From an uncultured Actinomycetes bacterium (GTDB lineage: Bacteria > Actinomycetota > Acidimicrobiia > IMCC26256 > PALSA-610), in assembly GCA_963781425.1 (NCBI GenBank), contig CAWAGX010000011.1:10476-74475 (forward strand): DNA of 64,000 bases, given 5' to 3'. Both the position numbers and the translations under genes were made by a program. Positions 10,819 through 44,165 of the stretch are shown piece by piece (position 1 is the first letter of the stretch; every line of letters starts with the position of its first letter). Under the pieces are notes generated by a model, which was not told the origin of the DNA, searched no databases, and saw nothing but the letters and a program-made list of their open reading frames with translations.

Positions 10819-11042
10819 GACACGGCAGTAGCATCCGCGGACGCATGACTACGATTACCGGGATCTTCGTCTCTGCGGTTTACTGCCGACTGTCACAAGA
10901 CCGCTGCGGGACCACGTCGCGCGCCGCACGGCGTTCGATCGGGTGAGGCGCTGGAATCGGCAGTCCGCGGCGACCGGCCAGGGTGCGCGGCGCCCCGAGC
11001 CCTCGCAGACCGACCTCGACCGCGGCCCTTCTCGCGCGGCTG

Positions 11043-12552
11043 ATGAACGCCCAACCTGAAATGCATCCTGGTAAACAGTCTTCCTCCGGAAAAGCGCGAC
11101 GCTCCCCTGCGAGAAACATCACGTATGTCGTTCTCGTCGTAGCTGTCGTGGGCGCGTTCGCATTCGCGGTGAGCACTGGCGTTTCCCGAAAGCATGCTCG
11201 ACCGCCCAACATTGTCATGATCATGACCGATGATTCTCATCTGAGCGAACACGACATCGTCGCGAATATGCGGCCAGAGGGTGGTTTTGCCTGGGTGCGC
11301 AATCACGGCGTCAAGTTCGACCGAATGTGGAGCACCGACAACGTTTGTTGTCCCGGTAGAACCACGATGCTGACAGGCCAAACGCCGTACAACCACGGCA
11401 TCTTCGAGGCGAACAAGAAATTCAAGAGGATTACCAACGCCTTACCTTCTTGGCTTCAAAAGGCTGGTTACGATACCGGGTTCGCCGGCAAGTATCTGAA
11501 TCTGTATCCCAACGTATACAAGGACCCGCAGTATCGCCGGCCTCCAGGCTGGACCTACTGGGAACCCGTGCTCGAGCCCCAGGGCGATACCGGCTTCGGC
11601 GTAATGGATCGTGCCGGCAATGCTGTGATGCCAGGTGGCTATCAAACCGACTATTTGGCGGCGGAGAGCCGCGCCCAGTTGAAGGACTCCCTGGACCGGG
11701 GGAAACCCACGTTCATCGCGTCTGTGGCCCATTGCGCCCCACACAGGCATCAAACCCAAGCCGGTGTACGCCAAGGTCCCGGTCGACTGGGTGAACACCG
11801 ACCCGAGCTACAACGAGCAAGATCTCAGCGACAAGCCGCCCCAGGTACAGAAGGGTGCGCGCAACTTCTTCAGCAAGGCCGCGTCGCGGACGGCACCGAT
11901 CTACGCCAAGGACCAAATACGCACTCTTCTGAGTGTCGACGACGCGCTCAAAGGAATCATCGACGATCTTACGGCCCGGCACCAGATCGAGAACACGGTC
12001 TTCATCCTCACGACCGACAACGGTTATTTGCTTGGCGAGCACCACCTGGTGAATTTCAAGCTGTTCGTGTACGAGGCAGCTCAACTACCGCTCGCGATTG
12101 CCGGGCCCGGGTTTCCGGCCGGCGTCACTAGCGACGCGTTCGTGACCAACTTGGATATCGCGCCAACGATTGAGCGAATTGCGGGCGTGAAGGGCAACGA
12201 CGCAATCGTCGACGGCCGCGCGATTCAGGATCTGTTGTCTGACCCCAATCACGGTCACGATCGTTTTCTGCCCATCTTCGTGCCCAACATGGTGCCGACC
12301 GGTGAGGGAGTAAAGACGTGGCGCTACAAATACATCAGGTACAAGAACGGCTTCGAGGAGCTGTACGACTTGGCGGTGGATCCATATGAGCTGGACAACA
12401 AGAACAAGGATCCGGACTACGCCAACGTCAAGGCGAAAATGATCGAGCTGATGCGCCAGGCCATCGCGTGCAAGGGCCCAAGCTGCCGCGTCAGCGCGCC
12501 GGCCGATCTGCAGGGCACCCGCGGCGAACGAACGACGCAGGCGTCGGGATGA
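11043..12552 (+). CDS. Sulfatase (formylglycine-dependent), signal-anchored, one frame break
   Basis: PNIVMIMTDD, the CCPGRTTMLTGQ (CxPxR) signature, GYDTGFAGKYLN and TTDNGYLLGEHH. The frame switches near 11730 (ORF 10983-12131 to ORF 11764-12552). Confidence 0.8.
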
Positions 12553-12833: not shown

Positions 12834-15800
12834 TCAGGGTCCGGGCGAGCCGGCAGGCGGAGTCGCGCACGCCGAGCGGTACGCGCCCGTCGCCGAGAAG
12901 TACGTGTTCCACTCGACCCGCGTGAGATCGCGGCCCGCGAGCGTGCATGCCTTCGCCGGCCACTTCGCGACATCGAGGCTCCAGATGGTGGTGGCGCTTC
13001 GCCCGGGCAGCACCATGGCGTGTCCGTCGGGGGCAAAGCCGCCGAGCCCGAAGAGCCCGGAACCCGGGAACGGGTCGCCCATTCGTGCTCGTTGCGCGAC
13101 GTCGACGAGATGGTTTTGCGCCATGACGTCCTGCACGACGATCAGATTTCCGTCGTTACTCCAGACGATGCTGGCGAGCAGGCCTGACGAAACGGGGATG
13201 GAACTGCCCACCTGCTTCGAGGTCGTGGCGTCGAGGAACGACACCGTGCCGTCGATTCTGCCGATCGCAAGGAGCTTGCCGTCGGGGCTGAACGCCGCGG
13301 TCTCCGGCGGCGCGCCCTCGACGGTCAGGATGCTGCCTCGCCCAATCTCACCGCCGGATATCGGATAGCGCCCGCCGCCGCCGATTGCAGTCGTGACGAT
13401 CAGCTCCTCGCCGTCGGCCCGGAACGTCGCGGCCAATGCGTGCGGAATTGCGGGGTCGAGAGATCGCACCCGGCGCGATCCGACGTCGATCACGTGCGCG
13501 CCGTTGACGGTGGCCGCGTTGCTGGTCGCGACCAACGAACGCCCATCGGGGCTGAAGCTCAGCGCCACAACGGCATTCGCATCGGTCTTGATCGGCCGGC
13601 CCGTCTTTCTGTATGAACCGGCTTCGAAGAGCTGCACGTTGCCGAATCGATCACCGATCGCGATCAGGCGCGAGTCAGGACTGAACGCGACGGGCGTCGA
13701 ACCGTCGAGCACGCCGCGCGCACCCGCGCCGCTGGCCGAGAGCGCGTGGATACGACCGACATCGTGCGTGCGGTAGAGCACGACCGTGTCGTCGTTCCCG
13801 GCGACCGCCAGAAGCTCTCCGTCTGGGCTGAACGTACCGCCTGCGCTCGGCGCGCCCTCGAGGTCGCTTGCGATGGTCGGCAAGCCGTTCGGATCCCAGA
13901 CGGTCATCGTGCCATCGAAGCCGGTGAGCACAAGACCGGTCGCACGTGTGCCGGCGATCTGGGCCGGGCCGTGTTGGGTCACCATCGGCTCGGTGGTCGC
14001 GCGTGTCCAATCCTCGGTATCCCACGCATCGACGGTTTCACCCGCAGTGATGAATTGTTCGTTGTCTGCGGTGAACACCACCGTCATGAGGCTTGCCGAA
14101 CCGAGCTGGGCAACTTCGCGCCGCGCCGCCACGTCGAACGCGTGCGCGCTGCCCGGCCCGCTTCGACCGAAGGTTCCGACACCCAACCACCGGCCGTTGG
14201 GAGAGAACGCGAGATTGAAGATGCCCTCGCGGCGATCCAGCTGAAGTGGTCGACCGACGGGCGCGCCGTTCGCTGCGTTGTGGAACACGATCCGACCGTC
14301 GTTGTCTCCCGCGGCGAACACGCGACCGTCGGGGCTCGCGGCGAAGGTGTTGACCGACCGCGTGTGGCCGCTCAGACTTCCGGATCGCGTCCGACTTCCG
14401 ACGTTCCACAGCTGCGGGGTCGTCGCCGAGCTGATCGGGTCGGTGCTCTCCACGACGCCGACCGCGACGGCGAGCTGCTTGCCATCGCGGAGGAACGCAA
14501 CGGCCGTGACCGGTGCACCGGAGTCGAGGGGTTCGCCGACCCTCTGCAAGGTGTGCGCGTCCCAGAACGTCACGCTTCCGTTCGAGCTCCCGGCCGCGAT
14601 CAACGTGCCATCGGGGCTGACCGAGATGCCGGCCGGGAATCCCGAAACCCCGAACGATCCGATCTTCTTGCGCGCGACGACATCCCAGACGTCCGCGCCG
14701 TCGCGGCCCAAGACCGCGAACCGTTTGCCGTCGGGGAACGCGGCGAGGGACGTGTAGCCGGCACGGCCGCCCGAAAGCGTGAGGCGCAGTCGCGGTTCGC
14801 CAAGGAGCGCGGCGAGCAACGCACTCTTGGTCGCCGCGCTCGGGCGAACACGCTGGGCTTGCACCGCCAGCAGCAACGCGAGACTGCGGTCGCGTTCGAG
14901 AAGCTGTGGTACTTCGGCCACCGCCCGATCGACTTCGGCGGACACCGACACCGCACGCGCCTGTCGCGCCTGCCGGTCTGCACGGCTCCGTTGGGCGAAG
15001 GCGACGACGCCGGTCGCCACGGCAACCACGAGCAGCAACGCGGTCGCGGTCAACAACACGCGGAGGCGGCGGTTCTGACGCGTTTGCGTCGCGGCCCGCT
15101 GTTCAGCATCCGCGCGTTCCCGATCGGCAAGGGCCCGGCTTGCACCGAGGAATTCGCGTTCGGGAACGGTGAGTGGGAGCTGTGCGGCGACCTCGTCGGC
15201 TGCCGCGAGCCTCGTGCCGCGGTAGAGTTCCGACTCGTCGCGGCGATGTTCTTCCCAATCCGCGGCGCTCTGGGCGAGCATACGGCGGACGCGTATCGCG
15301 TCACGATCCTCGTCGATCCACTCCCGCAGGCGCGGCCATTCGCGTAGCAGTGCTTCGTGGGCCACTTCGATCGTGGGCTCGCGCGTGATCGGGTGGTGGT
15401 CGAGCACGAGGAGCCGATTGGCGCGGTAGCGGTCGACCACTTCCGGGGCGACGTCGGCGAATTCCGGCATCGTCGCACGCCGGCGCAGGTCGTCACCGTC
15501 GTCTCCGGGCGTCACGAGCCGGGTGAACAGACGCCGTACGTCTGCGCGTTGCTCGCCGGCGGTGTCGTCATAGAGCTGCTCGGCCCGGCGCGCGAGCGCA
15601 CCGCCGATCCCGCCCAGCTCGGCATAGGCCGCGGCGGTGACGGTCGCGGTCGTCCGCCGTTCGTACAGCTCGGTCAGCGTGAACTGGAGGAGCGGCAGCG
15701 CGCCGGCCCGGCTCACGACGTCATCGACGATCGTCGCGACCAGACCCGGCTCGAAATGCACACCGACGCGCTCCGCAGGCGCGACGATCGCCTGCTGCAG

Positions 15801-16484
15801 CTCGGGAGCGCTCATGGGCGTCACCGCGAAGGTGGCATCACGCACGAGCGGCCCGAGGCTCGGGTGTTGCAGCGGACGGTCGTACAGGTCGGCGCGGAGC
15901 GTCACGACGATGCTCACCGATGCCTGCTGCTTCGCGGCCCGCACGAGCAGATCGGTGAAACGGTCGCGCGCCCGTCCGGACTCCACGAGGGTCCACAGCT
16001 CCTCGAACTGGTCGACGACGAGCACGAGGCGCGCCCCGTCGGACGCAATCTCGCCGGCGATGTCGACGAGCCCGTCGGGTGTCAGGAGATGGTCGCGCAG
16101 CGCGGCTGCGTCGGCGGCGGTCGCGACGCGCCGCAGTGCCGCTTCCAGCTCGGCGAGCGGGTCCGCACCGGGGACCATCGACACGACGAGCGCGCCGTCG
16201 CGCCGCAACGACGGCACGAGCCCGGCGTGCACGAGCGAGCTCTTTCCCGACCCGGACGGACCGACGACCGCGACGAACGTGGTGGCCTCGACCCGCGCAA
16301 CGAGCGCCGCGACGAGCTCGTCGCGTCCTTCGAACTCGGACGCGTCGGCCTCACGGAACGCCCGCAACCCCTTGTAGGGATTGGTGCCTCCAACCTGCAG
16401 GCTCGCGACGGTCTGCGACGTGGTCCGCGGGCTGGACGCGCCGGAGAGCCTGCCGGTCGTGCGCGACGGCATCCGTGCTCGCAA
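12834..16484 (-). CDS. STAND P-loop NTPase (nSTAND1-like), single TM helix, about 14 WD40 blades; probably continuous with the upstream kinase ORF
   Basis: Intact 1216-aa ORF with NPYKGLRAFREADASEFEGRD, Walker A GPSGSGKSS (nt 16236-16262) and Walker B LVLVVDQFEEL. A hydrophobic helix LRVLLTATALLLVVAVATGVVAFA lies at nt 14994-15065. About 14 SPDG/...W repeats follow. Confidence 0.8.
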   Translation of the reverse strand: MRARMPSRTTGRLSGASSPRTTSQTVASLQVGGTNPYKGLRAFREADASEFEGRDELVAALVARVEATTFVAVVGPSGSGKSSLVHAGLVPSLRRDGALVVSMVPGADPLAELEAALRRVATAADAAALRDHLLTPDGLVDIAGEIASDGARLVLVVDQFEELWTLVESGRARDRFTDLLVRAAKQQASVSIVVTLRADLYDRPLQHPSLGPLVRDATFAVTPMSAPELQQAIVAPAERVGVHFEPGLVATIVDDVVSRAGALPLLQFTLTELYERRTTATVTAAAYAELGGIGGALARRAEQLYDDTAGEQRADVRRLFTRLVTPGDDGDDLRRRATMPEFADVAPEVVDRYRANRLLVLDHHPITREPTIEVAHEALLREWPRLREWIDEDRDAIRVRRMLAQSAADWEEHRRDESELYRGTRLAAADEVAAQLPLTVPEREFLGASRALADRERADAEQRAATQTRQNRRLRVLLTATALLLVVAVATGVVAFAQRSRADRQARQARAVSVSAEVDRAVAEVPQLLERDRSLALLLAVQAQRVRPSAATKSALLAALLGEPRLRLTLSGGRAGYTSLAAFPDGKRFAVLGRDGADVWDVVARKKIGSFGVSGFPAGISVSPDGTLIAAGSSNGSVTFWDAHTLQRVGEPLDSGAPVTAVAFLRDGKQLAVAVGVVESTDPISSATTPQLWNVGSRTRSGSLSGHTRSVNTFAASPDGRVFAAGDNDGRIVFHNAANGAPVGRPLQLDRREGIFNLAFSPNGRWLGVGTFGRSGPGSAHAFDVAARREVAQLGSASLMTVVFTADNEQFITAGETVDAWDTEDWTRATTEPMVTQHGPAQIAGTRATGLVLTGFDGTMTVWDPNGLPTIASDLEGAPSAGGTFSPDGELLAVAGNDDTVVLYRTHDVGRIHALSASGAGARGVLDGSTPVAFSPDSRLIAIGDRFGNVQLFEAGSYRKTGRPIKTDANAVVALSFSPDGRSLVATSNAATVNGAHVIDVGSRRVRSLDPAIPHALAATFRADGEELIVTTAIGGGGRYPISGGEIGRGSILTVEGAPPETAAFSPDGKLLAIGRIDGTVSFLDATTSKQVGSSIPVSSGLLASIVWSNDGNLIVVQDVMAQNHLVDVAQRARMGDPFPGSGLFGLGGFAPDGHAMVLPGRSATTIWSLDVAKWPAKACTLAGRDLTRVEWNTYFSATGAYRSACATPPAGSPGP

Positions 16485-18030
16485 GCGCGACCTGCCATGC
16501 GCGCGCGAGCTCGGCGATGCTCGGGAAGCGATCGGCAGGATGCGGTGCCGTCGCTTTGCGCAGCAGGAGGTCGATCGCCTCGGGGACGTCGGGGCGGAAC
16601 TCGGTCAGCGGCGGCACCGGCACGCCGAGTTTCGCCCGCAGCACCTCGCTCGCGGTTGAGCCCGCGAATGGTGCGTGTCCCGTCAGCGCCTCCCACAGCA
16701 GCACGCCGAGCGAATACTGATCCGAGGCGGCGTTTGCCACACCGTCGCGCGCCTGCTCCGGACTCGCGTAGAGCGGAGAACCTGCGGACCGCAGGTCGAG
16801 TTGCACGTCGGCGTCGTCGGCACCGTCCGCCACCGAGATGCCGAAGTCGGCGAGATAGCTGTTCCCTGCCTCGTCGAAGAGCACGTTCGCGGGCTTCACG
16901 TCACGGTGCACGATGCCGAGCGCATGGGCGGCATTGAGTGCACCACCGATCTCGTCGACAAGACGCGTCACGCGCTCGATCGGAAGCGGTCCCTCGGTCA
17001 CGAGATCCGCGAGCGATCCACCGCGCAGCAGCCGGAACACGAGATAGGCGCCGCCCGGCTGACGCCAGAAGTCGTAGAGCGGAACGACATGTGGGTGCTC
17101 GAGACGTGCGACGAGCTGCGCTTCAGCCTCGAACCGCTGCACGAATCTCGGGTCGTCGGCCAGCTCCGGCCGCACGACCTTGATCGCAACCTCTCGGCCG
17201 ACGCTGGGCTGCACCGCGCGGTACACTGCACCGAACGCGCCTTCGCCGATGACCTCGGCCAGCTCGTACCCCGGAATCGCGATGCCGGTCGCGGCAGCCA
17301 GCGTCGGGTCGCCGAGCGTGATTCGGCGTTCGAGATCGATCAACGTCTCCGACGGCTCGAGCCCCGTCTCCTCGGCGAGGTAGTCGGAGTAGCGCCGGTA
17401 GCCACGAAGCGCCTCTGCCTGCCGGCCGCCGAGGTACAGGGCCCGCATGGAGAGCGCGACGAAGCGCTCGCGCAGTGGATGCTCCGCGATGAGCCGTTCC
17501 AGCTCCGCAACCGCCTCGGTGTGGCGCCCGGTCTCGAGGAGGCACTCGGCCCGCTCCTCGAGCGCGACCAGGCGAAGCTCTTCCAATCGCACTGCCACCG
17601 GCCGCAACCACCACTCGTCCGCATCGTCTCCGAACGCACGACCCGACCAGAGCGCGAGCGCGTCGTCGTACACAACCAACGCATCCGCGGGAGGGCGATC
17701 CCACGCCTCTGCCAATCTGGCCTCGAACTCCGCGGCGTCGTACGTCGCACCGTCGAGCGCCAGCGAGTAGCCAGCGTCGTTGTGGACCACATGCTCCTCG
17801 CCGATCGCGGTACGCAGACGAGACACGTAGGACATCACGGTGCGGCGCGCGCCTTCGGGCGCACTGCCATCCGGCCACAGCGCTTCGACCAACCGGTCGG
17901 CGCTCACGACCTGGTTGTGGTCGGCGAGCAGTCCCGCGAGCAAACGACGCTGCTGCGGACCGCCGAGCGCAATGGCGTCGCCGGCGTCAGTAGTCGCGCC
18001 GATCGAACCCCGCAGAACTGTGAACCGCAC
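16351..18030 (-). CDS. SARP-type regulator (winged helix plus BTAD) fused to a Hanks-type Ser/Thr protein kinase
   Basis: N-terminal segment GGPQQRRLLAGLLADHNQVVSADRLVEALWPD and BTAD helices (HPLRERFVALSMRALYLGGRQAEALRGY). Kinase motifs are GEGAFGAVY, VAIK, HRDVKPANV, ADFG and SPE. The last ~40 aa are Arg-rich nonsense overlapping the next ORF. Confidence 0.8.
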   Translation of the reverse strand: MRFTVLRGSIGATTDAGDAIALGGPQQRRLLAGLLADHNQVVSADRLVEALWPDGSAPEGARRTVMSYVSRLRTAIGEEHVVHNDAGYSLALDGATYDAAEFEARLAEAWDRPPADALVVYDDALALWSGRAFGDDADEWWLRPVAVRLEELRLVALEERAECLLETGRHTEAVAELERLIAEHPLRERFVALSMRALYLGGRQAEALRGYRRYSDYLAEETGLEPSETLIDLERRITLGDPTLAAATGIAIPGYELAEVIGEGAFGAVYRAVQPSVGREVAIKVVRPELADDPRFVQRFEAEAQLVARLEHPHVVPLYDFWRQPGGAYLVFRLLRGGSLADLVTEGPLPIERVTRLVDEIGGALNAAHALGIVHRDVKPANVLFDEAGNSYLADFGISVADGADDADVQLDLRSAGSPLYASPEQARDGVANAASDQYSLGVLLWEALTGHAPFAGSTASEVLRAKLGVPVPPLTEFRPDVPEAIDLLLRKATAPHPADRFPSIAELARAWQVALASTDAVAHDRQALRRVQPADHVADRREPAGWRHQSLQGVAGVP

Positions 18031-18056
18031 CGCAGTCCCCCTGTTCCTCGGTGACG

Positions 18057-18986
18057 CTAGGCGTCCCGCCGAGATCGCACCCAGTCGACGGCATGCAGCA
18101 TGTGCGCGCCACTGAGCCCCTTCAGCTCGACGCTGCGGGACTCGCCGAAGGCGAGATCCCCGCGCGACTCGACGATCTCGCGCACGAGCGACGAGACGAG
18201 GATCTCCCCGCCGCGCGCTTGGTTGGCGATACGCGCCGCCAGGACGACGGGCCGGCCGAAGAGGTCACCGTCTTCCAGGATCGCCTCGCCCGTGTGCATA
18301 CCGATGCGGATTCGGAGCGCGTCAGTCGGCCGCGACCGGCCATGTGCATCGAGCGCTCGCATCACGTCGATGGAGCAGAGCAGTGCGGCCCGTGCGCTGG
18401 AGAACGCAAGCATGAACCCGTCTCCCTGCGACTTCACCTCGTAGCCGCCATGGCGTTCGACGTGGCGCCGAATGAGCGAGTTGTGGAAGCCGAGGAGCTT
18501 CAGCCACCCTTCGTCGCCGAGCTCCACCGCCCGCCGGGTTGACTGCTCGATGTCGGAGAACACGATCGTGAGCGTTCCGCCGTCGGGTACCGCGCGCGGG
18601 ATCGAGCCGCTCGCGACCGCGGCGTCAGCGACGAGATCGATCGATGTGCGGCGAAGCGGATCATCCGACGGCCCGGCCCCGGTGCTCCCGTTGACCTCGA
18701 CCACTTCGAGCGTGCAGTTGCCGAACCGGACGACCTCCCCGTCGCGGAAGCCGGTCGGGCCGACGAGCGGAGCGCCGTCGAGGGTCGAGCCGTTGGTGCT
18801 GCCGAGGTCCTGCACCGTGACCCGTCCCGCGGTGGCACTGAGTCGTAGGTGACAGCGAGAGAGCTCGCCGTCGGCCAGCAGCACGCCGTCACAATCCCGG
18901 CCCACCTCGACCGGCTGCCGGAGGATCAGGTGCAACGGCGTCCTGCCGGGTTCGCTGATCTTGACGATTGGGTTCGATCGCATCAC
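18057..18986 (-). CDS. FHA domain plus class III nucleotidyl cyclase
   Basis: Intact 309-aa ORF. The FHA domain reads VGRDCDGVLLADGELSRCHLRL...DLGSTNGSTLDG. The cyclase domain reads TIVFSDIEQST, VKSQGDGFMLAF and RIGMHTGEA. The canonical GxxVNxAxR reads GRPVVLAAR, so the Asn is replaced by Val. Confidence 0.85.
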   Translation of the reverse strand: MMRSNPIVKISEPGRTPLHLILRQPVEVGRDCDGVLLADGELSRCHLRLSATAGRVTVQDLGSTNGSTLDGAPLVGPTGFRDGEVVRFGNCTLEVVEVNGSTGAGPSDDPLRRTSIDLVADAAVASGSIPRAVPDGGTLTIVFSDIEQSTRRAVELGDEGWLKLLGFHNSLIRRHVERHGGYEVKSQGDGFMLAFSSARAALLCSIDVMRALDAHGRSRPTDALRIRIGMHTGEAILEDGDLFGRPVVLAARIANQARGGEILVSSLVREIVESRGDLAFGESRSVELKGLSGAHMLHAVDWVRSRRDA

Positions 18987-19149
18987 CGCCTCAGCCTCGT
19001 GGAAGCCGTCTGCAAAACGTCGACAACGCCCGGGAGGAGCACGGACGGGGCCGAGCCGGACCTGGCGCGGCCACTGGTGGTGCCAGCACCACCGTCATCG
19101 GTGAGCGACCGCTCTCGTCGCCTCCCCGTGACCGTCCTACGTTTGCCGT

Positions 19150-21553
19150 GTGAGGAGCCGCGACAGATCCGCTGCCGGACTCTGGGCGCGCGCCGATCGT
19201 CGAAAGCGCTGGCGGTCGCTCACTGCCGTCGCGCTGTTGGCCGGCGTGGCGGGCGGTCTCGCGCTCGCGTCGCTGGCCGGCGCCCGCCGGACGAATACCG
19301 CGTTCGAACGCTTGCGCACACGGACTCTCGCGGCCGACGCGATCGTGTTCTCGAGCCAGGTCGGCGAATTCCACCCCGATTGGTCGAAGCTTGCCGCCCG
19401 GCCCGAGGTCGCGACCCTCGCACGTTGGTACTTGACGTTTGGCGTGATCCCGGGACAGGCAGACGAAGGCGTCCTGTTCGGTTCGATCGACGGGGAATGG
19501 GGGACGACCATCGACCGGCCGGTGGTGATGCACGGCCGCATGTACGACCCGCACGCGGTCGACGAGATGGTCATCGACGAGGACACTGCCAAACAGGAAC
19601 ACCTGCGGGTGGGATCCGTCATCCCGTTCCACGCGTACGGACCGCGCCAGGATGACACGAGCGGCGATCCGCCGACCGGCGCGCAGTTGCAGATGCGGGT
19701 CGTCGGCATCGTACGCATGACACCCCAGTTCTTGTTCACGCCGCTCGTGATCCTTTCGCCCGGAGTGCTCACCGCGCACCGCGACGACATCCTCTGGATC
19801 GAGAACGCGTTTGTGCGTCTCCGACCGGGAGGAGGCGGCGTCGCCGCGCTGCAACGGGACGCGAACGCGCTGGTCGCCAACGGCACACCGGTGCTCGACC
19901 TGCGCGCCACCCAACGACGCGTGGACACGACGATCAACGTCGAGCAGTCGGCACTCGTGTTGATTGCGATCGCTATCGCGGCTGCCGGGCTCGTCCTGGT
20001 CGGTCAGATCCTCGGGCGCTCGGCATCGACGATCCGCGGCGATGCCCCGGTGCTGCGGGGCATCGGGATGACGCGACGCGATCTTGCGCTCGCGGGCGCC
20101 CGGGCGCATTCATTCGTTGCGATCGGGGCTGCACTCGGGGTGATCGCGACCGCGGTCGTGGTCTCGCAGTGGTTTCCGGTCGGTCTCGCGGGTCGCGTCG
20201 ATCCCGATCGCGGCGCGCATGCCGATTGGCTCGTGCTCGTCCCCGGCGCGCTCGTCGTCGCCGTGCTCGTGTTCGGTGGTGCGTACCTCATCGCGTCGCG
20301 AGCGGCGCGTACCGAACCGATCCGGAGTGCCGGTCGGCGGGGCGGCGCGCTCGCGCGGGTTCGCAGCCACACGCCGGTCAGCGTGGGTGTCGGTGCGACG
20401 ATGGCGTTCGACCAGCGGCGCGGTCGCGTGGACGTCGCCGTGCGTCCGGCGGTGATCGGTGCGGTGGTCGGCGTGCTCGGTGTGGTCGGCGCGCTCACGA
20501 TCGACCACGGCTTGCGCGACACGCTCGCGCACCCGGAGCGAGCGGGAGTGACCTGGGACGCGACCGTCGCGCCCAAGTCGGGGGACTACGCCGAGCGCGG
20601 CCTGAAGCCGGATCTCACGGCGCGCATCGCGGCCGTTCCCGGCGTGCGGGGTGTCACCGTCGTCGACCGACTGGTCCTCGACGTGAACGGCGTCGGCGTT
20701 CCCGGATTCACGATGCGCCCTCCCACGGCGAATGGCACGCCGATCTCGTTCACGATCATCGAGGGACACGCGCCCGAGAACGCCGACGAGGCTGCAATCG
20801 GACCGGCGACCCAGCGTGACCTGCACGTCGAGGTCGGCGACGTCGTCACGGTCGGAGCCAAACACAGACGCGTGCGGATCACGGGTCGGGCGTTGTTCCC
20901 GTCGGACGTGCACGCGGCGTTCGATCAAGGCATCTGGCTGACCGCTCCGGGCTGGGACACCGTGGTGCCGCCGAACGACCTTGCCGGTGGGATCGAGGCG
21001 TCCGCCGCGCGCGCCGCGAGCCTCGTGGCAGTTCGCTTCGCGGCCGGCGTCGATCACCAGGAGGGGATCGCCCATTTGACCACTGCGCTCGGCGATCGCA
21101 TTGACGGCGTCGCGCCGGCGGAGGAGCCAATCGAGCTGATCAACCTTCGCAACGTGCAACGACTGCCGGAAGTGCTCGCCATCCTCCTTGCGCTGCTGGC
21201 GATCGCGGCCCTGACGTATCTCCTCGTCGCGATCACTCGCGCTCGCGCGGGACTTCGCCGTGTTGCGCGCGCTCGGTTTCACGCCCCGGCAGAGCGGCGT
21301 CGTGGTCGCCGCGGAGAGCACCGCGATAAGTGTCGTCGGCTTGGTGCTCGGCATCCCGATCGGCGCGATCCTCGGGCGAGTGGCATGGCGCCTCATCTCC
21401 GAGCGGGTGCCGCTCCAAGACGTGCCTCCGGTCGCGGCGATCGCGCTCGTCACGATCGTGCCGCTTGCACTCGTCGGGGCCAACCTGCTGGCCGCGTGGC
21501 CGGCGCGGCGCGTCGCTCGCCTCCCGGCCGCCGAAGTCCTGCGGACCGAATAA
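19150..21553 (+). CDS. FtsX-like (MacB-type) ABC permease with two FtsX domains, one frame break, no adjacent ATPase gene
   Basis: The N-terminus RKRWRSLTAVALLAGVAGGLALASLAGARRT is typical of large actinobacterial FtsX-like permeases. The first FtsX block lies around 19950-20300. The C-terminal block (FAVLRALGFTPRQ...LPAAEVLRTE) is in ORF 21260-21553 after a shift near 21240. Confidence 0.75.
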
Positions 21554-25337: not shown

Positions 25338-25986
25338 GCAGGGCATCTACAGCATCGGAGCTCTTGCGCGGATGCTCGGGATTTCGCCCACGACGCTTCG
25401 CTCGTGGGAAGAACGCTACGGCGTTGTGGTTCCCGAACGGAGCGCGGGATCGCAGCGCCTGTATTCCCGCGACCAGTTGGATCAGCTGCAGTTCGTGTGC
25501 CGGCAGATGGGACTCGGACTGAGCGCGGCCGACGCGCATCGCGCGCTCGCAGAACGGCTGGCCGCCGGCAATCCTCGATTCGCCACCGACCGAGACGAGC
25601 CCGCGGAACGGAGAATCCTGCTCGTGGAACGTGATCCGTACGCCGCGGAGCTCGCGGAGTACTTCCTGCGCACCGAGGGCTACGACGTTGACGTTGCCCG
25701 CTCGATTCCGGATGCCGAACGACTGATCGGCGAAGAAGTCGTCGACCTGGCCATCATCGATCTGATGATCGGCGGCGGTGCAGGCTTGGGACTCTGTCAG
25801 CGCCTGGGCGACACGCTGCGGGTACTCGCAGTGTCGGCTCTTGACCAGCGTGAGCGCGCGATTGCCGGCGGGGCCGACGCCTTCATCCGCAAACCCTTCG
25901 AGCCTCTGACGCTGGTCTCCACCGCAAGGGACCTCGTCGGAACGAGCGCGACGGTCCGCGAAGTGCAGCGAGTCTCGACTGAATGA
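25330..25986 (+). CDS. MerR-type HTH fused to a response-regulator receiver domain
   Basis: GTG 25330 overlaps the STAS stop by 8 nt. YSIGALARMLGISPTTLRSWEERYGVV..RSAGSQRLYS is a MerR HTH. The receiver domain shows RILLVERDP, DLAIIDLMI, LAVSA and FIRKPF. Confidence 0.75.
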   Translation: MTEQGIYSIGALARMLGISPTTLRSWEERYGVVVPERSAGSQRLYSRDQLDQLQFVCRQMGLGLSAADAHRALAERLAAGNPRFATDRDEPAERRILLVERDPYAAELAEYFLRTEGYDVDVARSIPDAERLIGEEVVDLAIIDLMIGGGAGLGLCQRLGDTLRVLAVSALDQRERAIAGGADAFIRKPFEPLTLVSTARDLVGTSATVREVQRVSTE

Positions 25987-27377
25987 TGGAACGCGTCACG
26001 AGTGGTCACGACCGGCTCGACCGGCTGCTGGACGGCGGCCTTCCTGCCAACGGGATCAACCTCATCATCGGCCACCCCGGGAGCGGTAAGACGATCCTGG
26101 CCGAGCAGTACATGTTTCACAATGCGCGACCGGACTCGACGGGCCTGTACCTGTCAACGGTGTCCGAGCCGTTCGACAAGGTTCTGAGGTACGCAGAGTC
26201 GCTGTCCTTCTTCGATCAGGACGCGATCGGAACGTCGGTCTTCTACGACGACCTCGGCGAGACCGTCGATCGCGACGGTCTCGACGGTGTGCTCGACCAC
26301 ATTGACCACATCCTCAAGGAGCTACAGCCCGGCTTCGTGGTGATCGACAGCTTCAAAGCGCTTCGGTCCTTCGCCCCGGACGAAGCAATGTTCAGACGAT
26401 TCCTGCACAATCTTGCAGGCAGGCTGACCGCCGTCGCCGCAACGACCATGTGGATCGGAGAGTACGACCGCGCGCAGGCGGCGGACGCGCCGGAGTTCGC
26501 GGTCGCCGATTCCATCATCGCCTTGGCCGCGAAGCGCACCGCCGAGCGCGAGCTGCGTGTGCTCCAGGTGCTGAAGCTCCGCGGCAGCGCATTCCAATCA
26601 GGCGAACATGCATATCGCATCAGTGCCGACGGCCTCGACGTATTCCCGCGTCTGGCCGACGACCTCGATACCAGCGACTACGAGCTTGGCGACGACCGCG
26701 TCTCTACGGGCATCCCAGCCCTCGACGAGACGCTCGGCGACGGCTACTGGCCCGGCGCGGTGACCCTGATCTCGGGCCCAACCGGAGCAGGGAAGACACT
26801 CATCTCGCTGCACTTCTTGTTCCACGGTGCGAAGAGCGGGGAACCCGGCGTCCTCGCGACGTTCCAGGAGAACCGCACGCAGCTCGCGCGCATCACTACC
26901 GGCTTCGGCTGGGACATCGAGAGCTCGGACGTGCACGTCCTGAGCCGTTCACCCGTTGACCTCTACGTCGACGAATGGGTCTACGACCTTCTCGCGCTCA
27001 TCGACCAAACGGGTGCCCGACGAGTCGTGGTCGACAGTCTCGGCGACCTCATGTTCGCGTCTCCCGACAACATCCGCTTCCGAGAGATGATGTATTCCCT
27101 GTCCCAACGTCTCTCCCGACGCGGGATCAGTCTCATGATGACCCACGAGAGCATCGAGCTCTTTCACGTGACGCGCCTTTCTGAAATCGGCATGTCACAC
27201 ATCGCCGACAACGTCGTGATGCTGCAGTACCTGCGAACCGAATCGCAGGTCAAGCGCGCGCTCCTCGTGCTGAAGACTCGCGCCAGCGCCCATCACCCCG
27301 AAATTCGCGAGTTCCACATACGCCCCGAAGGCATCGTCCTCGGCGAGACGTTCGGCGCCGACCAACAGTTCGACTAA
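25983..27377 (+). CDS. Double-domain KaiC-like RecA-superfamily ATPase
   Basis: ATG 25983 overlaps the upstream TGA (ATGA). Intact 464-aa ORF with two Walker A loops (GHPGSGKT, GPTGAGKT) and two Walker B strands (FVVIDSF, RVVVDSL). TGIPALDETLGDGYWPG and KTRASAHHPEIREFHI are KaiC/COG0467-like. Confidence 0.8.
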   Translation: MMERVTSGHDRLDRLLDGGLPANGINLIIGHPGSGKTILAEQYMFHNARPDSTGLYLSTVSEPFDKVLRYAESLSFFDQDAIGTSVFYDDLGETVDRDGLDGVLDHIDHILKELQPGFVVIDSFKALRSFAPDEAMFRRFLHNLAGRLTAVAATTMWIGEYDRAQAADAPEFAVADSIIALAAKRTAERELRVLQVLKLRGSAFQSGEHAYRISADGLDVFPRLADDLDTSDYELGDDRVSTGIPALDETLGDGYWPGAVTLISGPTGAGKTLISLHFLFHGAKSGEPGVLATFQENRTQLARITTGFGWDIESSDVHVLSRSPVDLYVDEWVYDLLALIDQTGARRVVVDSLGDLMFASPDNIRFREMMYSLSQRLSRRGISLMMTHESIELFHVTRLSEIGMSHIADNVVMLQYLRTESQVKRALLVLKTRASAHHPEIREFHIRPEGIVLGETFGADQQFD

Positions 27378-38086: not shown

Positions 38087-38770
38087 TCAGCTCTCCTCGT
38101 CGACGAATCGGTAGCCCATGCCGGGTTCGGTGATGAAGTAGCGCGGGCGCGACGGGTCGGGCTCGAGCTTCCGGCGGATCTGACTCATGTAGATGCGCAG
38201 GTAGTGCGTCTCGCGCTCGTACTCGGGGCCCCACACCTGTTGCAGCAGCTGCTGCTGCGGCACGAGCTTGCCGGTGTTCCTGGCAAGCACCTCGACGATC
38301 TGCCACTCGGTCGGCGTGAGGTGCACCTCGCCGTCGGGACGGCGAACGTGCTTGGCGCCGAGGTCGATCGTGAAGTCGGCGGTCGTGATGACGGGCGCCT
38401 CCTCACCGGTCGCGGCCCGGCGCAAGGCGGCTCGCACGCGTGCCAGGAACTCGTTCATCCCGAACGGCTTCGTGACGTAGTCGTCGGCGCCGGCATCGAG
38501 CGCCGCGACCTTGACCGACTCCGCGTCCCGCGCCGAGAGCACGACGATCGGCACGTTGCTCCACCCGCGCAACGCGGTCGCGACCGCGACGCCATCCATG
38601 TCGGGCAGCCCGAGGTCGAGGATGACCGCGTCGGGGTGTTCCCGCGCCGCGAGCGCGAGGCCCTCGGCGCCGTTCGCCGCGAGGACGACGGTGTAGTCGT
38701 GGGCCTCGAGGAAGATTCGCAGTGCCCGCCGCAGCGGTGCCTCGTCCTCGATCACGAGCAGCTTGCTCAC
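38087..38770 (-). CDS. kdpE: OmpR-family response regulator KdpE
   Basis: GTG 38770 overlaps the kdpD stop (GTGA). KLLVIEDE, AVILDLGLPDMDG, VVLSAR, DDYVTKPF, LTPTEWQIVEVL and GMGYRF. Confidence 0.85.
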   Translation of the reverse strand: MSKLLVIEDEAPLRRALRIFLEAHDYTVVLAANGAEGLALAAREHPDAVILDLGLPDMDGVAVATALRGWSNVPIVVLSARDAESVKVAALDAGADDYVTKPFGMNEFLARVRAALRRAATGEEAPVITTADFTIDLGAKHVRRPDGEVHLTPTEWQIVEVLARNTGKLVPQQQLLQQVWGPEYERETHYLRIYMSQIRRKLEPDPSRPRYFITEPGMGYRFVDEES

Positions 38771-41280
38771 GGCGTCGGCTCCGGTCTCGCGAACGTGAAC
38801 ACCATCGTCGTGCCGCCGCCGGGCGTGTCGTCGACGCGTAGCTCGCCGCCGAGGGCCTCCGTGAACCCACGCGCCACCGCCAGGCCGAGGCCCACACCAC
38901 CGGGTGACGCGTCCCCGAGCCGCTGGAAGGGCTGGAACACCCGGTCGCGATCCTCGGGCGAGATGCCCGTGCCGCGGTCGATCACGCGCAGGACCAGACG
39001 GTCGCCGACAACCCCGGCGTCGATCCGCACGGCCGTCTCGGGAGGTGACCACGACAGCGCGTTGTCGACGACGTTCGCAATCGCACGCTCCAGCAACGCC
39101 GGGTCGGCGCGCACCCGGGGCAGGCAGTCGGGGACGTCGACGACCACTGCCGCGGCGCGTTCGCCGAGGCTGACGAGCGCGCGGCCGACGACCTCGTCGA
39201 GCGCGACATCGGTCGTCGCGAGCTCGAGCGCACCGGCCTGCAGGCGGCTCATCGCGAGCAGGTTGTGCACGAGCTCGTCGAGGCGGTCGACCTCTTCGTC
39301 GATCGTCTCATGCAACTGGTGCACGGTGTCGTCATCGAGGTGCAGGTCGTCGGCGAGCAAGGTGGTCGCCGCGGCCTTGATCGACGCGAGCGGAGTGCGA
39401 AGATCGTGCGACACGGCCCGCAGGAGCGCGGTACGGAGCGCGTCGGCCTCGGCGAGCGTCGTCGCCGACGCGGCCTCGGCGCGGAGCTCGCGGCTCGCGA
39501 GCGCGACAGCGAGCTGCGACACGAACGCGTTGAGCACCCGACGTTCGTCGGCGGTGAGGTTCGGCCCGACGTACGCGAACACGTCCTCATCGGGAAGCTC
39601 GGCGGTTGCGCTGGCCTCGCCCGGATTTGTCGGCCCCGGCATGCCGGCGTGCGCCACGACGGACCACGCCTTGTTCGGCGCGGCCCGCAGGACCGCGACC
39701 GACTGCAGACCAAAGGTCGCGAGGAGCTGTTGCATGATCTCCGGCAGCGGGTCACCCTCGGACAAGAGCGCGCCGGCAAGCCGCACCAGCGAGCCGGCCT
39801 CGCTCCGCGCCCGGGCCGCCTCGATCGCGCGGCGCGTGGCCAGCGTCACGAAGACACTCACGACCGCGGCGACGACGAGGAAGACAACGAGCGCGACCAG
39901 ATTCTCGTGCTGCTCAATCGTCCACTCGTGGAACGGCGGGGTGAAGTAGAAGTTGACGAGCAGGAACGCGGCGACCGCCGACACCATCGCGACCCACGCA
40001 CCGCCGATGGCCGCCACTACCACGACGACGAGCAGATACAGCAGGAGGTCGCTTCCGAGCGACACACGATCGCGCTGTTGTGCGAGCACGATCGTGAGCA
40101 GCGGCAGGACGGCGAGCGCGACCACTGCCGCGATCAACTGCCGTCGCTTCGAGATCCCGAGCGACAGCCGCGCCGGGCGGTGCTGTGCGCCGGCGCCTCC
40201 CCTTCCTCCTGGGTCGAGATGACGTGCACGTCGATGTCGCCGGACGCGCGCACGACACGGTTGATCACCGATCCGCGGAAGAGCGTCGCTCCAGCGCGAA
40301 CGGCGGCTCGAACCCAACACGAGCTGCGTAGCGTGCTCGCTGCGCGCGAATGTGACCAGGGTCGGTGGCCGGTCCGGCGCCGACGACCTCGTGATACGTG
40401 CCGCCGAGATCCTCGAGGAGCTTGCGGTGGCGTTCGAGCAGTCCTGGCGGCGGACCGGCCAGTCCCTCGCCGGCACGCACGTGCACGCCGAGCAGGTCAC
40501 TCTTCGTACGCGTCGCCATGCGCGAAGCGCGCCGAACGAGGTGTTCGCCACCGGGCGCGCCGGTGAGCGCGACCACGATGCGTTCGCGCGTCTCCCACGC
40601 CGCGGTGATGCCGTGGTCCTCCATGTATTGCTGGAGGCTCTCGTCGACCTTGTCGGCGACCCAGAGCAGCGCGAGCTCTCGCAACGCCGCGAGGTTGCCG
40701 GGTCGGAAGTAGTTCGCAAGCGCGGCGTCGACCTTCTCGGGCCGGTAGATGTTGCCGTGCGCCATGCGCCGGCGCAGCGCCTCCGGCGTCATGTCGACGA
40801 GCTCGACCTGGTCGGCGCGTCGCACGACCTCGTCGGGCAGCGTCTCCCGCTGCTGTACGCCGGTGATCCGCTCGACGACGTCGTTGACCGACTCGAGGTG
40901 CTGGATGTTGACCGTCGAGATCACGTCGATACCGGCATCGAGCAGCTCCTCGACGTCCTGCCAGCGCTTCTCGTGCTTCGAGCCGGGCACGTTCGTGTGG
41001 GCGAGCTCGTCGACGAGCACCTGCTTGGGCTTGCGGCCGCAGGATCGCGTCGATGTCCATCTCCTCGAAGTCGCGTGCCGCGGTACTCGATGACCTGGCG
41101 GGGCACGACCTCGAGGTCGCGGATCTGCTCGGCCGTTCGAGGCGCCCGTGGGTCTCGACGAAGCCGACCACGACGTCTGTACCCCGCGTCGTGGCGGCGG
41201 CATCCCTCGTTCAGCATCGCGAACGTCTTGCCGACGCCCGGCGCGGCGCCGAGATACACGCGGAGGCTGCCGCGGGCCAC
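38767..41280 (-). CDS. kdpD: Sensor histidine kinase KdpD, several frame breaks in the N-terminal half
   Basis: N-terminal segment LRVYLGAAPGVGKTFAMLNEG, then Usp-like, DUF4118-type TM helices, GAF-like, H-box SHDLRTPLASI and G-boxes DRGTGI, GGVGLGLAV. ORFs 40921-41280, 40265-41392 and 38767-40719 carry successive parts. Confidence 0.8.
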
Positions 41281-41404
41281 GTTCTACTGCCCGCGATCGA
41301 GGGCGAGGTTGAGTTCGAGCACGTTCACAGTCTGCTCCCCCAGGAAGCCCCAGTGGACGCCCTTGCGTGTGCTTGCCGATCAGCGCCCGCACTGATGCTT
41401 CGCG

Positions 41405-42055
41405 TCAGGCCCCGAGCGCCGGCGACGCGCGCGCGGCCTGCAGCCGCGCGTTCGCGACTGAGATCTGCGGGTCGAGCCCCGACGCCGATGACGTGACCGC
41501 GTCGACCGGCACCTCGCGTGCCGGGGGCCAGGCCGTTGAGCTCCCGGTACGCCATTGCCCGTTCCGGCACGGTATTCGGATCGCACACGTAGGTGCCGTC
41601 CTTGTTCTTCTCGTACACGGGATTGCCGGCGGCATCGGTGATCGGGTTGTCGGACTCGTCGGTCGACTCGACGGGCAGGCAGTATGGGTCGGCGGGCGTT
41701 GCGTACGGATTCGTCGGGGTGTCGATGCTGACACCGGGGACGTTCCCGATCAGCTTCGGGTTCGACGGCCCGAGGTTCGTGCCCCAGCTCGACATCGCGT
41801 CGTAGCCGTCGCCCGCGGCCGACGGACGGGGCTGGAAGTACTTCGGTAAGCGGGTTGCCGTCGGCGTCGGTGAAGCTCTGGCCGATCAGCGACGAACCGA
41901 CGATCTTTGCCGTCGACCGTCACGAGCGATCCGTTGGCGCGCTTCGACATGAGCCCTTGCGCGACGCCGGTGACAGCCAGCGGATACAGCAAGCCGACCA
42001 GCACCATGAGCACGACGGTCATGAGCAAGCCGGTGAGAAGTTGACGGCGCAGCAT
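41405..42055 (-). CDS. kdpC: K+-transporting ATPase subunit KdpC, frame-disrupted
   Basis: [33 protein letters not shown] at the start. [29 protein letters not shown] at the end, in a different frame. A Pro/Asp-rich insert lies between them. Confidence 0.7.
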
Positions 42056-44156
42056 CACTTCACCCCCAAGGCGACGACGATGAGGTCGATGAGCTTGATC
42101 CCGATGAACGGGGCAATGATGCCCGCCGATGCCGTAGATCAGGATGTTGCGGCGCAGGACCGCTGCCGCACCCATCGCGCGGAACTTCACCCCCCGCAAG
42201 CGCCAGCGGGATCAGCGCCACGATGATCAGGGCGTTGAAGATGACTGCGGACAGGATCGCCGAGTGCGGGTTGTCGAGCTTCATGATGTTCAGCGTGTCG
42301 AGCGGCGGGAACACGCCGACGAACATGGCGGGGATGATGGCGAAGTACTTCGCGACGTCGTTCGCGATCGAGAACGTCGTCAGCGAGCCCCGCGTGATCA
42401 GCAGCTGCTTGCCGATCTCGACGATCTCGATGAGCTTCGTCGGATTCGAATCGAGGTCGACCATGTTGCCGGCTTCTTTGGCGGCCTGGGTGCCCGTGTT
42501 CATCGCGACACCGACGTCGGCCTGCGCCAGCGCGGGCGCATCGTTCGTCCCGTCGCCGGTCATCGCCACCATCGACCCGCCGACCTGCTCGCGCTTGATC
42601 AGCGCCATCTTGTCTTCGGGTGTGGCCTCGGCGAGGAAGTCGTCGACGCCGGCTTCCTTCGCGATCGCGGCCGCGGTCCGCGGGTTGTCGCCGGTGATCA
42701 TCACCGTGCGGATGCCCATGGTGCGCAGCTGGTCAAAGCGTTCGTGCATGCCTTGCTTGACGACGTCCTTCAGATAGATGACGCCCAGGACATGGAGCCC
42801 GTTCGCGACAACGAGCGGGGTGCCGCCCTGCGTCGCGATGCCGTCCACGATCGTCTCGAGCTCGTCGGGCACTGACCCGCCCTGGTCTTCCACCCAACGA
42901 CGCACGGAATCGGCAGCGCCCTTCCGAATGGAATGACCTCCGAAGTCGACGCCGCTCATCCGAGTTTGGGCGGTGAACGGCACCAGTTCGGCGTTCGGGA
43001 TGTCGCGAACGGCCAACCCGTAGTGGTCGTGTGCGAACGTCACGATCGAGCGACCCTCGGGGGTCTCGTCGGCGAGGCTCGAGAGCATGGCGGCGTCGGC
43101 CAGCGTGTGCTCTTCGACACCGGGGACAGGGAGAAACTGCGCGGCCTGGCGGTTGCCGTACGTGATCGTGCCGGTCTTGTCGAGCAGGAGCGTCGAGCAG
43201 TCACCGGCCGCCTCGACCGCGCGACCGCTCATCGCGAGCACGTTGCGCTGCACGAGCCGGTCCATGCCCGCGATACCGATGGCCGAGAGCAGCGCACCGA
43301 TCGTCGTCGGAATGAGGCACACGAGCAGCGCGATCAGCACGACGAGGTCCTGGCTCGCCTTGGAGTAGATCGCGAACGGCTGGAGCGTCACGGTCGCGAG
43401 GAGGAAGATGATCGTCAGCCCGGCCAGGAGAATGTTGAGCGCGATCTCGTTGGGCGTCTTCTGACGGGAGGCGCCCTCGACGAGGGCAATCATGCGGTCG
43501 AGGAACGTCTCCCCCGGCTTGGCCGTGATCTGCACGACGATCTCGTCGGAGAGCACGCGGGTGCCGCCGGTGACGGCCGAACGGTCGCCGCCCGACTCCC
43601 GGATGACCGGGGCCGACTCCCCCGTGATCGCCGACTCGTCGACGGTGGCAATGCCCTCGACGACCTCACCGTCGCCGGGGATGAGCTCGCCCGCGGTGAC
43701 GACGCACAGGTCCCCGAGCTGCAGGTCGTTCGAGGACTTCTCGACGATCGACCCGTCGGCCTGACGGATGCGCGCGATCGTCTCGGAGCGGGTCTTGCGG
43801 AGCGTGTCGGCCTGTGCCTTGCCGCGCCCTTCGGCGACCGCTTCGGCGAAGTTCGCGAACAGCACGGTGAACCACAACCACGCCGACACGAGGCCGGTGA
43901 AAACGCTGTCGGACGCCTTTGCCGAAGGGAGTTTCTGAAAGAACAGGATCGTGGTGAGGACGCTGCCGACCTCGACGATGAACATCACCGGGTTGCGCGC
44001 CATCTGACGCGGGTTGAGCTTCTTGCACGAGTCGACGATTGCTCGCCGCACGATCGCGGGCTCGAACAACGAGCTTGCACCCGCGGCACGTGTACGCACC
44101 TTCGGAGGGCGCTCGCGCGATTCCGGTTGATGGAGTGCTCCGGGTGTGGTTGCCAT
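42055..44156 (-). CDS. kdpB: K+-transporting P-type ATPase subunit KdpB, frame break(s) in the last ~50 codons
   Basis: [20 protein letters not shown] and [17 protein letters not shown]. The true C-terminus ...[26 protein letters not shown]...LGVK ends with TGATG at 42055, in another frame from ORF 42060-44156. Confidence 0.85.
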
Positions 44157-44165
44157 GCCCGCTCC

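Follow-up and report, generated by a model that had tools for sequence, protein, structure and literature searches.

A conserved FHA-cyclase and SARP-kinase-nSTAND1-WD40 gene pair of Acidimicrobiia as a candidate two-gene signaling module

Introduction

What would a bacterium do with a nucleotide cyclase that carries a phosphothreonine-reading forkhead-associated (FHA) domain and is encoded only 26 nucleotides ahead of a gene stringing together a transcription activator, a protein kinase, an NTPase switch and two β-propellers? The question is raised by the minus strand of a 64,000-nucleotide stretch of DNA (hereafter the window; contig CAWAGX010000011.1 of assembly GCA_963781425.1) from an uncultured actinobacterium of the class Acidimicrobiia, where three large open reading frames (ORFs) follow one another at 18057..18986, 16351..18030 and 12834..16484. 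The first encodes an FHA-cyclase, and the other two are, as argued below, the halves of a single megagene, for a gene pair of about 6.2 kb. The megaprotein comprises, in this order and with strong Pfam support for the domains, a SARP-type DNA-binding module, a Hanks-type Ser/Thr kinase, an nSTAND1 NTPase, a hydrophobic helix and 14 WD40 blades.

The pair most likely represents an uncharacterized signaling pathway assembled from known parts. More specifically, and with middling confidence, we read it as a two-gene signaling module of the Acidimicrobiia in which a receptor-type STAND kinase would act via phosphothreonine (pThr) and FHA recognition on cyclic AMP (cAMP) synthesis, and via its SARP module on transcription. 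The evidence comprises the domain content, the conserved catalytic and binding residues, a hydrophobic helix with a positively charged N-terminal flank, the conserved pairing of the two genes and the solved structure nearest to the cyclase; from these we infer the topology of the module, the order of events, the phosphosite, the cAMP product, the ligand and the target genes.

An FHA-cyclase related to Ma1120

The first gene (18057..18986, minus strand, as are all features of the pair) is intact and encodes 309 residues, with 93%-identical homologues and an AlphaFold2 model of mean predicted local distance difference test score (pLDDT) 87. Its product matches both FHA (PF00498, 40.1 bits vs. 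a cut-off of 20.7) and Guanylate_cyc (PF00211, 58.1 bits vs. 21.9) in Pfam searches, in agreement with an earlier interpretation made from the DNA letters alone (the sequence-only reading), which had described here an intact FHA plus class III cyclase gene running from 18986 to 18057 and ending 26 nucleotides before the next start at 18030; the spacer itself occupies 18031..18056. The FHA domain (residues 27–89; 18720..18908) presents the GR, SxxH and NG signatures, and its seven pThr-binding residues, G29, R30, S43, R44, H46, N65 and G66, are invariant in 64 sequences. Conserved, too, is the catalytic inventory of the class III cyclase homology domain (residues 138–292; 18111..18575) across 109 members of the family: the metal-binding aspartates D145 (106/109) and D189 (109/109), the substrate-specifying K185 (104/109) and D241 (at least 90%), and the conserved Arg252 and Lys289.

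The canonical Asn-Arg pair is incomplete. The window's cyclase reads GRPVVLAAR, with Arg252 in place and Val248 where the transition-state Asn is expected, and this position is Val in 87 and Ile in 16 of the 109 sequences. The valine had been noted before as a sign of potentially atypical chemistry; the substitution itself stands and proves to be family-wide, whereas the chemical conclusion does not follow. The closest solved structure is that of Ma1120 from Mycobacterium avium (E 9e-44, about 46% identity), an active adenylyl cyclase with Ala at the Asn position, in which the A164N exchange drastically lowers activity (PMC4215837). Judged by the alignment, the replacement is thus a trait of the whole Ma1120/LipJ-like cyclase clade and no argument for inactivity or atypical chemistry. 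Since K185 and D241 align with the substrate-specifying K101 and D157 of Ma1120, the Lys185/Asp241 pair predicts ATP as the substrate and cAMP as the expected product, and the first gene is predicted to encode a soluble, Ma1120-type adenylyl cyclase with an FHA domain.

Between the two domains lies a conserved helix (residues 113–126; 18609..18650; RTSIDLVADAA), whose counterpart in the alignment is the helix at the N-terminus of full-length Ma1120. The AlphaFold2 model superposes best on this very structure, full-length wild-type Ma1120 (4wp3), with a Foldseek template modeling (TM) score of 0.91 over 189 columns, the N-terminal helix included. In Ma1120 the helix reportedly blocks the dimer interface and thereby autoinhibits the enzyme. 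The analogy suggests, though it does not prove, that engagement of the FHA domain could release an Ma1120-like helix lock.

A SARP-kinase-nSTAND1-WD40 megaprotein and its frameshift

The second gene begins with a SARP winged helix (Trans_reg_C, residues 24–79; 17794..17961; 38.4 bits vs. 26.2) followed by a BTAD domain (residues 98–237; 17320..17739; 118.9 bits vs. 22.1). The adjoining Hanks-type Ser/Thr kinase domain (residues 255–501; 16528..17268; Pkinase, 149.9 bits vs. 31.7) has every catalytic motif: the Gly-rich loop (GEGAFGAVY), the VAIK lysine, the αC glutamate, HRD...N (HRDVKPANV), DFG and an APE-type motif (SPE), and K284, E303, H375, D377, N382, D395, F396 and G397 are invariant or nearly so in 20 homologues. 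The NTPase that follows (residues 36–417 of the downstream reading frame, ORF B; 15234..16379) matches nSTAND1 (PF20703) over model positions 1–378 of 379 with 396.3 bits against a gathering threshold of 27.1 (E 2.7e-118). Its lead-in NPYKGLRAFREADASEF, Walker A motif GPSGSGKSS and Walker B motif (L)VVDQFEE are all present in the translation, and both Walker motifs are intact and conserved in the homologue consensus. The domain assignments of the sequence-only reading, the nSTAND1 clade included, therefore hold in profile searches, which place the NTPase inside STAND, and the kinase, Walker and cyclase motifs it had quoted all recur in the translations.

Two features of this region bear on its possible output. 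The linker between kinase and STAND domains is enriched in threonine (7.0% vs. 3.8% for whole proteins), with an RTTG[RS]L motif in the closest clade, and is a candidate docking site for the FHA domain. Among relatives of the nSTAND1 protein, the N-termini carry SARP, LuxR/GerE, XRE or sigma-70 region 4 helix-turn-helix (HTH) domains, with or without a kinase, and no toxins; regulatory outputs of this kind favor signaling over defense. A scan of 12500–19300 for promoters, terminators and SARP boxes returned no promoter-like site, a single terminator-like site located inside a gene, and no target promoter.

The roughly 5.2-kb unit from 18030 to 12834 had been taken for one continuous reading unit, which it is not. 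It consists of two ORFs in different frames that overlap by 134 nucleotides: ORF A (16351..18030, 559 residues), which ends in a stop created by the frameshift, and ORF B (listed as 12834..16484, 1,216 residues), which supplies the C-terminal part of the megaprotein from 16464 down to 12834. Nucleotide alignment with the closest relative, locus L002 from an Acidimicrobiia metagenome-assembled genome (MAG) based on short reads (87.9% identical over 6,185 nucleotides), locates one extra base in a GCGCG run at 16461..16465, just ahead of the Thr-rich RTTGRL linker. Deleting this base yields a single ORF of 1,731 residues whose linker (..STDAVRTTGRLSG..) agrees with the homologues; their linker (..TDATRTTGSLP..) fits frame A through STDAV and frame B from RTTGRL onward. 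Homologues 67–69% identical to ORF A likewise hold SARP, kinase and nSTAND1 within one protein, and intact single ORFs of 1,742–1,929 residues with identical Pfam architecture occur at eight other loci (L005, L006, L014, L016, L021, L023, L026 and L042). The lengths of database matches are unusable as an indicator of full-length proteins, as none of the 360 matches listed exceeds 975 residues.

Such a break raises the possibility that the receptor gene is a true pseudogene of a decaying module, of which only the FHA-cyclase, or nothing, still functions. Besides the insertion itself, which breaks the ORF, this explanation can draw on L002, whose short-read assembly has its own, different 1-nucleotide indel (position 15125) that splits the megagene in the WD40 region, and on the two adjacent genes of the window, a sulfatase (10983..12552) and an FtsX-like ABC permease (19150..21553), which are frameshifted too. 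The same neighbors can be turned against it, since a stretch of 10 kb with frameshifts in three unrelated genes resembles an indel-prone assembly, and in long-read MAG relatives the megagene is often cut into two to four pieces. Moreover, both halves retain full-length domain matches and a third-position guanine-plus-cytosine (GC) content of 0.80–0.82 and are free of internal stops. Given the split neighbors and the fragmented megagenes of long-read relatives, we consider an assembly error the more likely origin of the inserted base, and genuine decay of the module unlikely.

A predicted membrane helix ahead of the WD40 propellers

Downstream of the NTPase, residues 476–497 of ORF B (14994..15059) form an uncharged segment of 22 residues, VLLTATALLLVVAVATGVVAFA, preceded by RQNRRLR and predicted to be a transmembrane helix. 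An uncharged core of 20–24 residues is found at the equivalent position in all 14 full-length homologues (14/14), its hydrophobicity conserved and its sequence not. Over the same 14 homologues, the 15 flanking residues carry a mean net charge of +4.3 on the N-terminal and +0.6 on the C-terminal side. Following the positive-inside rule, the helix and its flanking charges place the SARP, kinase and STAND domains in the cytoplasm and the two WD40 propellers, as predicted, outside the cell. The single hydrophobic helix and the approximately 14 blades had both been recognized from the letters and are borne out here. The proposed relay from a WD40 sensor to a STAND switch can be kept in amended form: with the propellers predicted outside, that step must cross the membrane.

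The WD40 region itself (12837..14804, predicted extracytoplasmic together with a Cys-containing C-terminal tail) shows 13 FSPDG-type motifs and one double-length gap, which makes 14 blades, or two propellers. It is only 22–44% identical between relatives vs. 66–74% for the cytoplasmic domains, a divergence of the kind expected for a ligand-binding surface. The tail past the last blade (12834..12940; ..WPAKACTLAGRDLTRVEWNTYFSATGAYRSACATPP..) has two cysteines, and a disulfide is possible if it is extracytoplasmic.

Conservation of the gene pairing

A functional connection between the two genes should leave a trace in other genomes. A scan of one genome per species with the FHA-cyclase alignment returned 80 loci, which were then searched with the six domains of the window's pair; 51 contain a full-length FHA-cyclase and 29 are FHA-less cyclase relatives. 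All 51 full-length loci come from MAGs, nearly all of them labeled Acidimicrobiia or unclassified Actinomycetota. An nSTAND1 homologue lies within 10 kb of the full-length FHA-cyclase in 29 of these 51 species-level loci and in 16 of the 21 that make up the closest clade (60% or more identical in the cyclase domain), where four of the remaining five are short contigs ending in SARP, kinase or WD40 sequence beside the cyclase. Among the 29 FHA-less relatives, mostly Thermoleophilia, there is no such neighbor (0/29).

The arrangement of the partners varies. The cyclase comes first in the window and at L002–L007, L010, L016, L017 and L046; it stands behind the megagene, either directly (L008, L029 and the SARP-less L043–L045 and L052) or two genes after it (L014, L021); and the two are divergent at L012, L023, L040 and L042. 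The SARP-less genes, which read kinase-nSTAND1-transmembrane (TM) helix-WD40 (L043–L045, L052), also have the cyclase directly downstream. Since the pair persists through three gene orders, its adjacency, surviving rearrangement, is good evidence at the level of gene neighborhoods for a functional link.

The pair forms a cassette that sits in differing genomic contexts. The window and L002 have only this segment in common (12853..19033 in the window, 88% nucleotide identity) and their flanks are unrelated: a tblastx comparison of the L002 flanks with the window gave only short, low-score noise and no detectable homology. Between the borders at 12500–12900 and 18980–19400 there is no shared word of 10 nucleotides or more, direct or inverted, and hence no sign of a mobile-element boundary. 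When all ORFs of 30 module loci were clustered, no third gene family turned out to be shared by more than a few close relatives. Across the Acidimicrobiia the module is widespread, often with several copies per genome.

Several individual loci depart from the simple pair. In an Acidimicrobiaceae MAG (L026, 1..20954), three tandem SARP-kinase-nSTAND1-WD40 paralogues share two cyclase genes within 21 kb, a local expansion. At L021 (2384..10930), and likewise at L014, four genes with 4-nucleotide overlaps form an operon encoding the megaprotein, a 218-residue protein without family match, a 525-residue membrane protein weakly matching NQR2/RnfD/RnfE, and the FHA-cyclase. Just downstream of the module at L001 (15746..16678, minus strand) lies a metallo-β-lactamase-fold gene with an Anti-Pycsar_Apyc1 Pfam match, which could encode a cyclic-nucleotide phosphodiesterase and is not conserved in other module loci. 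L033 (5184..12250) represents a second FHA-cyclase subfamily, 45–55% identical and 758 residues long with an unannotated C-terminal half; its gene is divergent from an operon for a DUF11/DUF5979 protein and an ordinary Hanks kinase, without a STAND gene.

Proposed mechanism and alternatives

In the signaling module that we favor, the intact product of the second gene would be a receptor of about 1,730 residues that crosses the membrane once, with SARP, kinase and nSTAND1 inside and the WD40 propellers outside. Binding of a ligand by the external propellers would favor nucleotide-dependent switching or oligomerization of the STAND module, whereupon the kinase domains could meet and autophosphorylate on threonine, with the Thr-rich kinase-STAND linker as the candidate site. 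The FHA domain of the cyclase would dock on the resulting pThr, and docking would shift the Ma1120-like inhibitory helix and/or join two cyclase domains, leading to cAMP production. In parallel, the membrane-tethered SARP module could switch on target promoters in a ToxR/CadC- and AfsR-like manner. Taken one step further, and as a tentative proposal, the megaprotein might be a membrane-spanning STAND receptor resembling NOD-like receptors (NLRs), in which external WD40 propellers would sense, for example, a polymer, a fragment of the cell envelope or the surface of another cell and would drive, across the membrane, an nSTAND1 oligomerization switch with three simultaneous outputs: Ser/Thr phosphorylation, cAMP synthesis by an FHA-recruited cyclase and tethered-SARP transcription. 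If true, it would be a bacterial hybrid of receptor kinase and NLR with a direct pThr-to-cAMP link.

A number of observations weigh against this module as drawn. Its topology is predicted from hydropathy and charge, and we know of no characterized STAND protein whose switch is governed by repeats lying beyond a membrane. The activation loop of the kinase has serine and no threonine, and the RTTG linker motif is conserved only in the closest clade, TT occurring in 14 of 55 linkers overall. The receptor gene of the window is frameshifted and so could be inactive here. In favor of the pairing, the cyclase and the nSTAND1 domain next to it diverge in step (Spearman 0.94, n = 27), but this correlation is confounded by species phylogeny. 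Finally, the pairing is not reciprocal: the synteny test put forward by the sequence-only reading comes out positive, the cyclase and STAND-kinase genes co-occurring at 29 of 51 loci and in three orders, but all three of the more distant SARP-kinase-nSTAND1(-WD40) genes looked up (46–50% identical) are without a cyclase within 8 kb. This reverse test consists of three look-ups of distant homologues, as a metagenome scan for SARP-kinase genes gave ordinary kinases at nearly all of 80 loci; from it the cyclase, at the level of gene neighborhoods, is an accessory partner in some lineages and not a universal output.

The same parts could also be wired differently, with the FHA-cyclase not the output but either regulating or scaffolding the kinase or serving as its substrate. 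In one version, the R-[RQ]-[TS]-S-I-D site where the interdomain helix begins might be a target of the kinase, and the FHA domains would then bind each other's pThr, as in DgcB; in another, the FHA domain might keep the kinase switched off. Conservation of this site (T114 in 84/109, S115 in 108/109), the fold-level match to DgcB, itself an FHA-GGDEF cyclase, and the fact that bacterial FHA proteins are often both substrates and regulators of kinases all speak for such an arrangement. Residue 114 is, however, Ser in 25 of 109 sequences, whereas FHA domains need pThr, and conservation of every catalytic residue of the cyclase argues that catalysis matters. We consider such a wiring improbable, and it overlaps the favored module rather than excluding it.

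An anti-phage or conflict system similar to NLRs would have the nSTAND1/WD40 protein recognize an invader and the cyclase messenger trigger a growth-arrest or death effector encoded elsewhere. nSTAND1 was indeed defined among predicted conflict systems, some with N-terminal Ser/Thr kinase or FHA domains (PMC8195603, PMC10907252), and fast divergence of the sensor region, paralogue expansion as in the three tandem copies of L026, differing genomic contexts of the cassette and a weak PycC match of the cyclase (E 5.3e-5, 20.5 bits) would all be compatible with it. Yet PADLOC-DB v2 holds no system-specific match for the pair: no system model fits the STAND-WD40 protein, which has only P-loop-level matches (E 3.5e-5), and the kinase matches reflect a generic kinase domain. 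The pair has no conserved effector or third gene beside it, its flanks are ordinary (sulfatase, ABC permease, glyoxalase, hemerythrin), and the megaprotein has a transcription activator and a kinase as its N-terminal outputs, with other HTH domains and no nucleases, TIR domains or proteases in the relatives. With the sensor predicted outside the cell, where a phage protein would not usually be encountered, and the Lys/Asp pair and kinship to Ma1120 pointing to ordinary cAMP, the conflict module entertained by the sequence-only reading finds no support and is very doubtful, and a receptor-type signaling module, held with the middling confidence stated at the outset, is favored over it.

Comparison with known systems

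The best-characterized analogue is found in Streptomyces, where AfsK is a Hanks kinase with a β-propeller tail and AfsR a SARP-NOD(STAND)-TPR activator. The NOD and repeat domains of AfsR autoinhibit the SARP domain, ATP relieves this inhibition, and AfsK phosphorylates the NOD and repeat domains (PMC10936776). In both systems a STAND NTPase and a repeat sensor come after a SARP module, and the Hanks kinase involved has a propeller attached. In contrast, everything is united here in a single polypeptide, the NTPase is nSTAND1 and not of the NB-ARC type, WD40 repeats instead of TPRs stand behind a predicted TM helix, and there is a dedicated FHA-cyclase partner. Partial NCBIfam matches of the megaprotein to AfsR (133.6 bits vs. 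a cut-off of 1430) and AfsK (108.4 vs. 1300) indicate that these are not orthologues.

Other known systems combine some of the same elements. In Mycobacterium tuberculosis, PknH is a receptor Hanks kinase and EmbR a SARP-BTAD-FHA regulator whose FHA domain reads the pThr of the kinase. Hanks kinase, SARP/BTAD and a pThr-reading FHA domain thus recur, but in EmbR the FHA domain sits on the SARP protein and no STAND domain is involved, whereas here the kinase carries the SARP module and the cyclase the FHA domain. M. tuberculosis PknD is organized as kinase, TM helix and extracellular NHL β-propeller, and ToxR and CadC are OmpR-type winged-helix activators that work membrane-anchored; they resemble the megaprotein in having a cytoplasmic output, one TM helix and an external propeller or sensor domain, and differ from it in lacking a STAND NTPase between output and membrane, the topology here being predicted only.

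For the cyclase, the nearest characterized enzymes are the class III adenylyl cyclases Ma1120 and Rv1900c/LipJ. Ma1120 shares the identical Lys/Asp pair, the absence of the transition-state Asn and the homologous N-terminal helix, but has neither an FHA domain nor a linked kinase, and the LipJ model of NCBIfam (NF058673) scores 117.4 against a cut-off of 800. DgcB of Bdellovibrio, an FHA-GGDEF protein, has a nucleotide cyclase of the same palm-type fold under the control of its N-terminal FHA domain, and sequence and fold match over both domains; it differs in its GGDEF/c-di-GMP chemistry, as opposed to class III/cAMP, and the overall superposition is poor (TM score 0.35–0.40). By this analogy, DgcB offers a precedent, at the level of the fold, for a nucleotide cyclase controlled through FHA.

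The NTPase clade is shared with the nSTAND1 conflict-system proteins (Kaur et al. 2021), but the described nSTAND1 systems feature EAD adaptors, FGS sensors and toxic effectors and are without SARP, TM helix, WD40 or FHA link. Similar in composition are the TIGR03903 TOMM fusions, in which a Hanks kinase is joined to a class III cyclase and a STAND ATPase within one system, again without SARP, TM helix, WD40 or FHA link; the score against this model is 137.7, with a cut-off of 705.75.

Every domain of the pair is thus already known, as are similar combinations such as the TIGR03903 fusions. What is new is the SARP-kinase-nSTAND1-TM-WD40 fusion, its conserved FHA-adenylyl cyclase partnership and the predicted position of a STAND sensor across the membrane; in line with the sequence-only reading, which knew of no characterized system with this combination, a literature search, with most subscription journals outside its reach, found no paper describing the pair or the architecture. 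The module would provide a direct and testable link from Ser/Thr phosphorylation to cAMP synthesis via an FHA domain, and would exemplify a STAND switch separated from its repeat sensor by a membrane. The Acidimicrobiia are abundant, mostly uncultured bacteria of soil and water, for which it may be a major sensory device. At about 6.2 kb the pair is small enough for expression and reconstitution, and its cyclase has in Ma1120 a crystallized and enzymatically characterized relative.

Other genes in the window

Upstream in coordinates, the sulfatase gene (10983..12552, plus strand) is split into an ORF at 10983..12131, which covers Pfam Sulfatase positions 1–175, and an ORF at 11683..12552, which covers positions 181–301 plus SGSH_C, with the frameshift near 11750–11840. 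On the other side, the FtsX/MacB-like ABC permease (19150..21553, plus strand) is divergent from the cyclase gene and switches frame near 21215–21240, past which the first frame continues as Arg-rich nonsense; its long first part has no Pfam match. Two minus-strand ORFs in the same region (18991..20109 and 20110..21483), which adjoin each other upstream of the cyclase gene, were considered as operon members and rejected: they are Arg/Asp-rich and without family matches, and the plus strand there encodes the permease.

Farther along, a KaiC-like double-ATPase gene occupies 25983..27377 (plus strand; PF06745, E 2e-72). A kdp cluster at 38767..46049 (minus strand) comprises KdpA (44166..46049, full-length match), KdpB (42060..44165) and a KdpD-like histidine kinase (38767..40788), the last in that frame without the usual N-terminal KdpD domain. 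At 54118..55817 (plus strand) lie rmlA-like (NTP_transferase) and rmlC-like (dTDP-sugar epimerase) genes with overlapping stop-to-stop frames.

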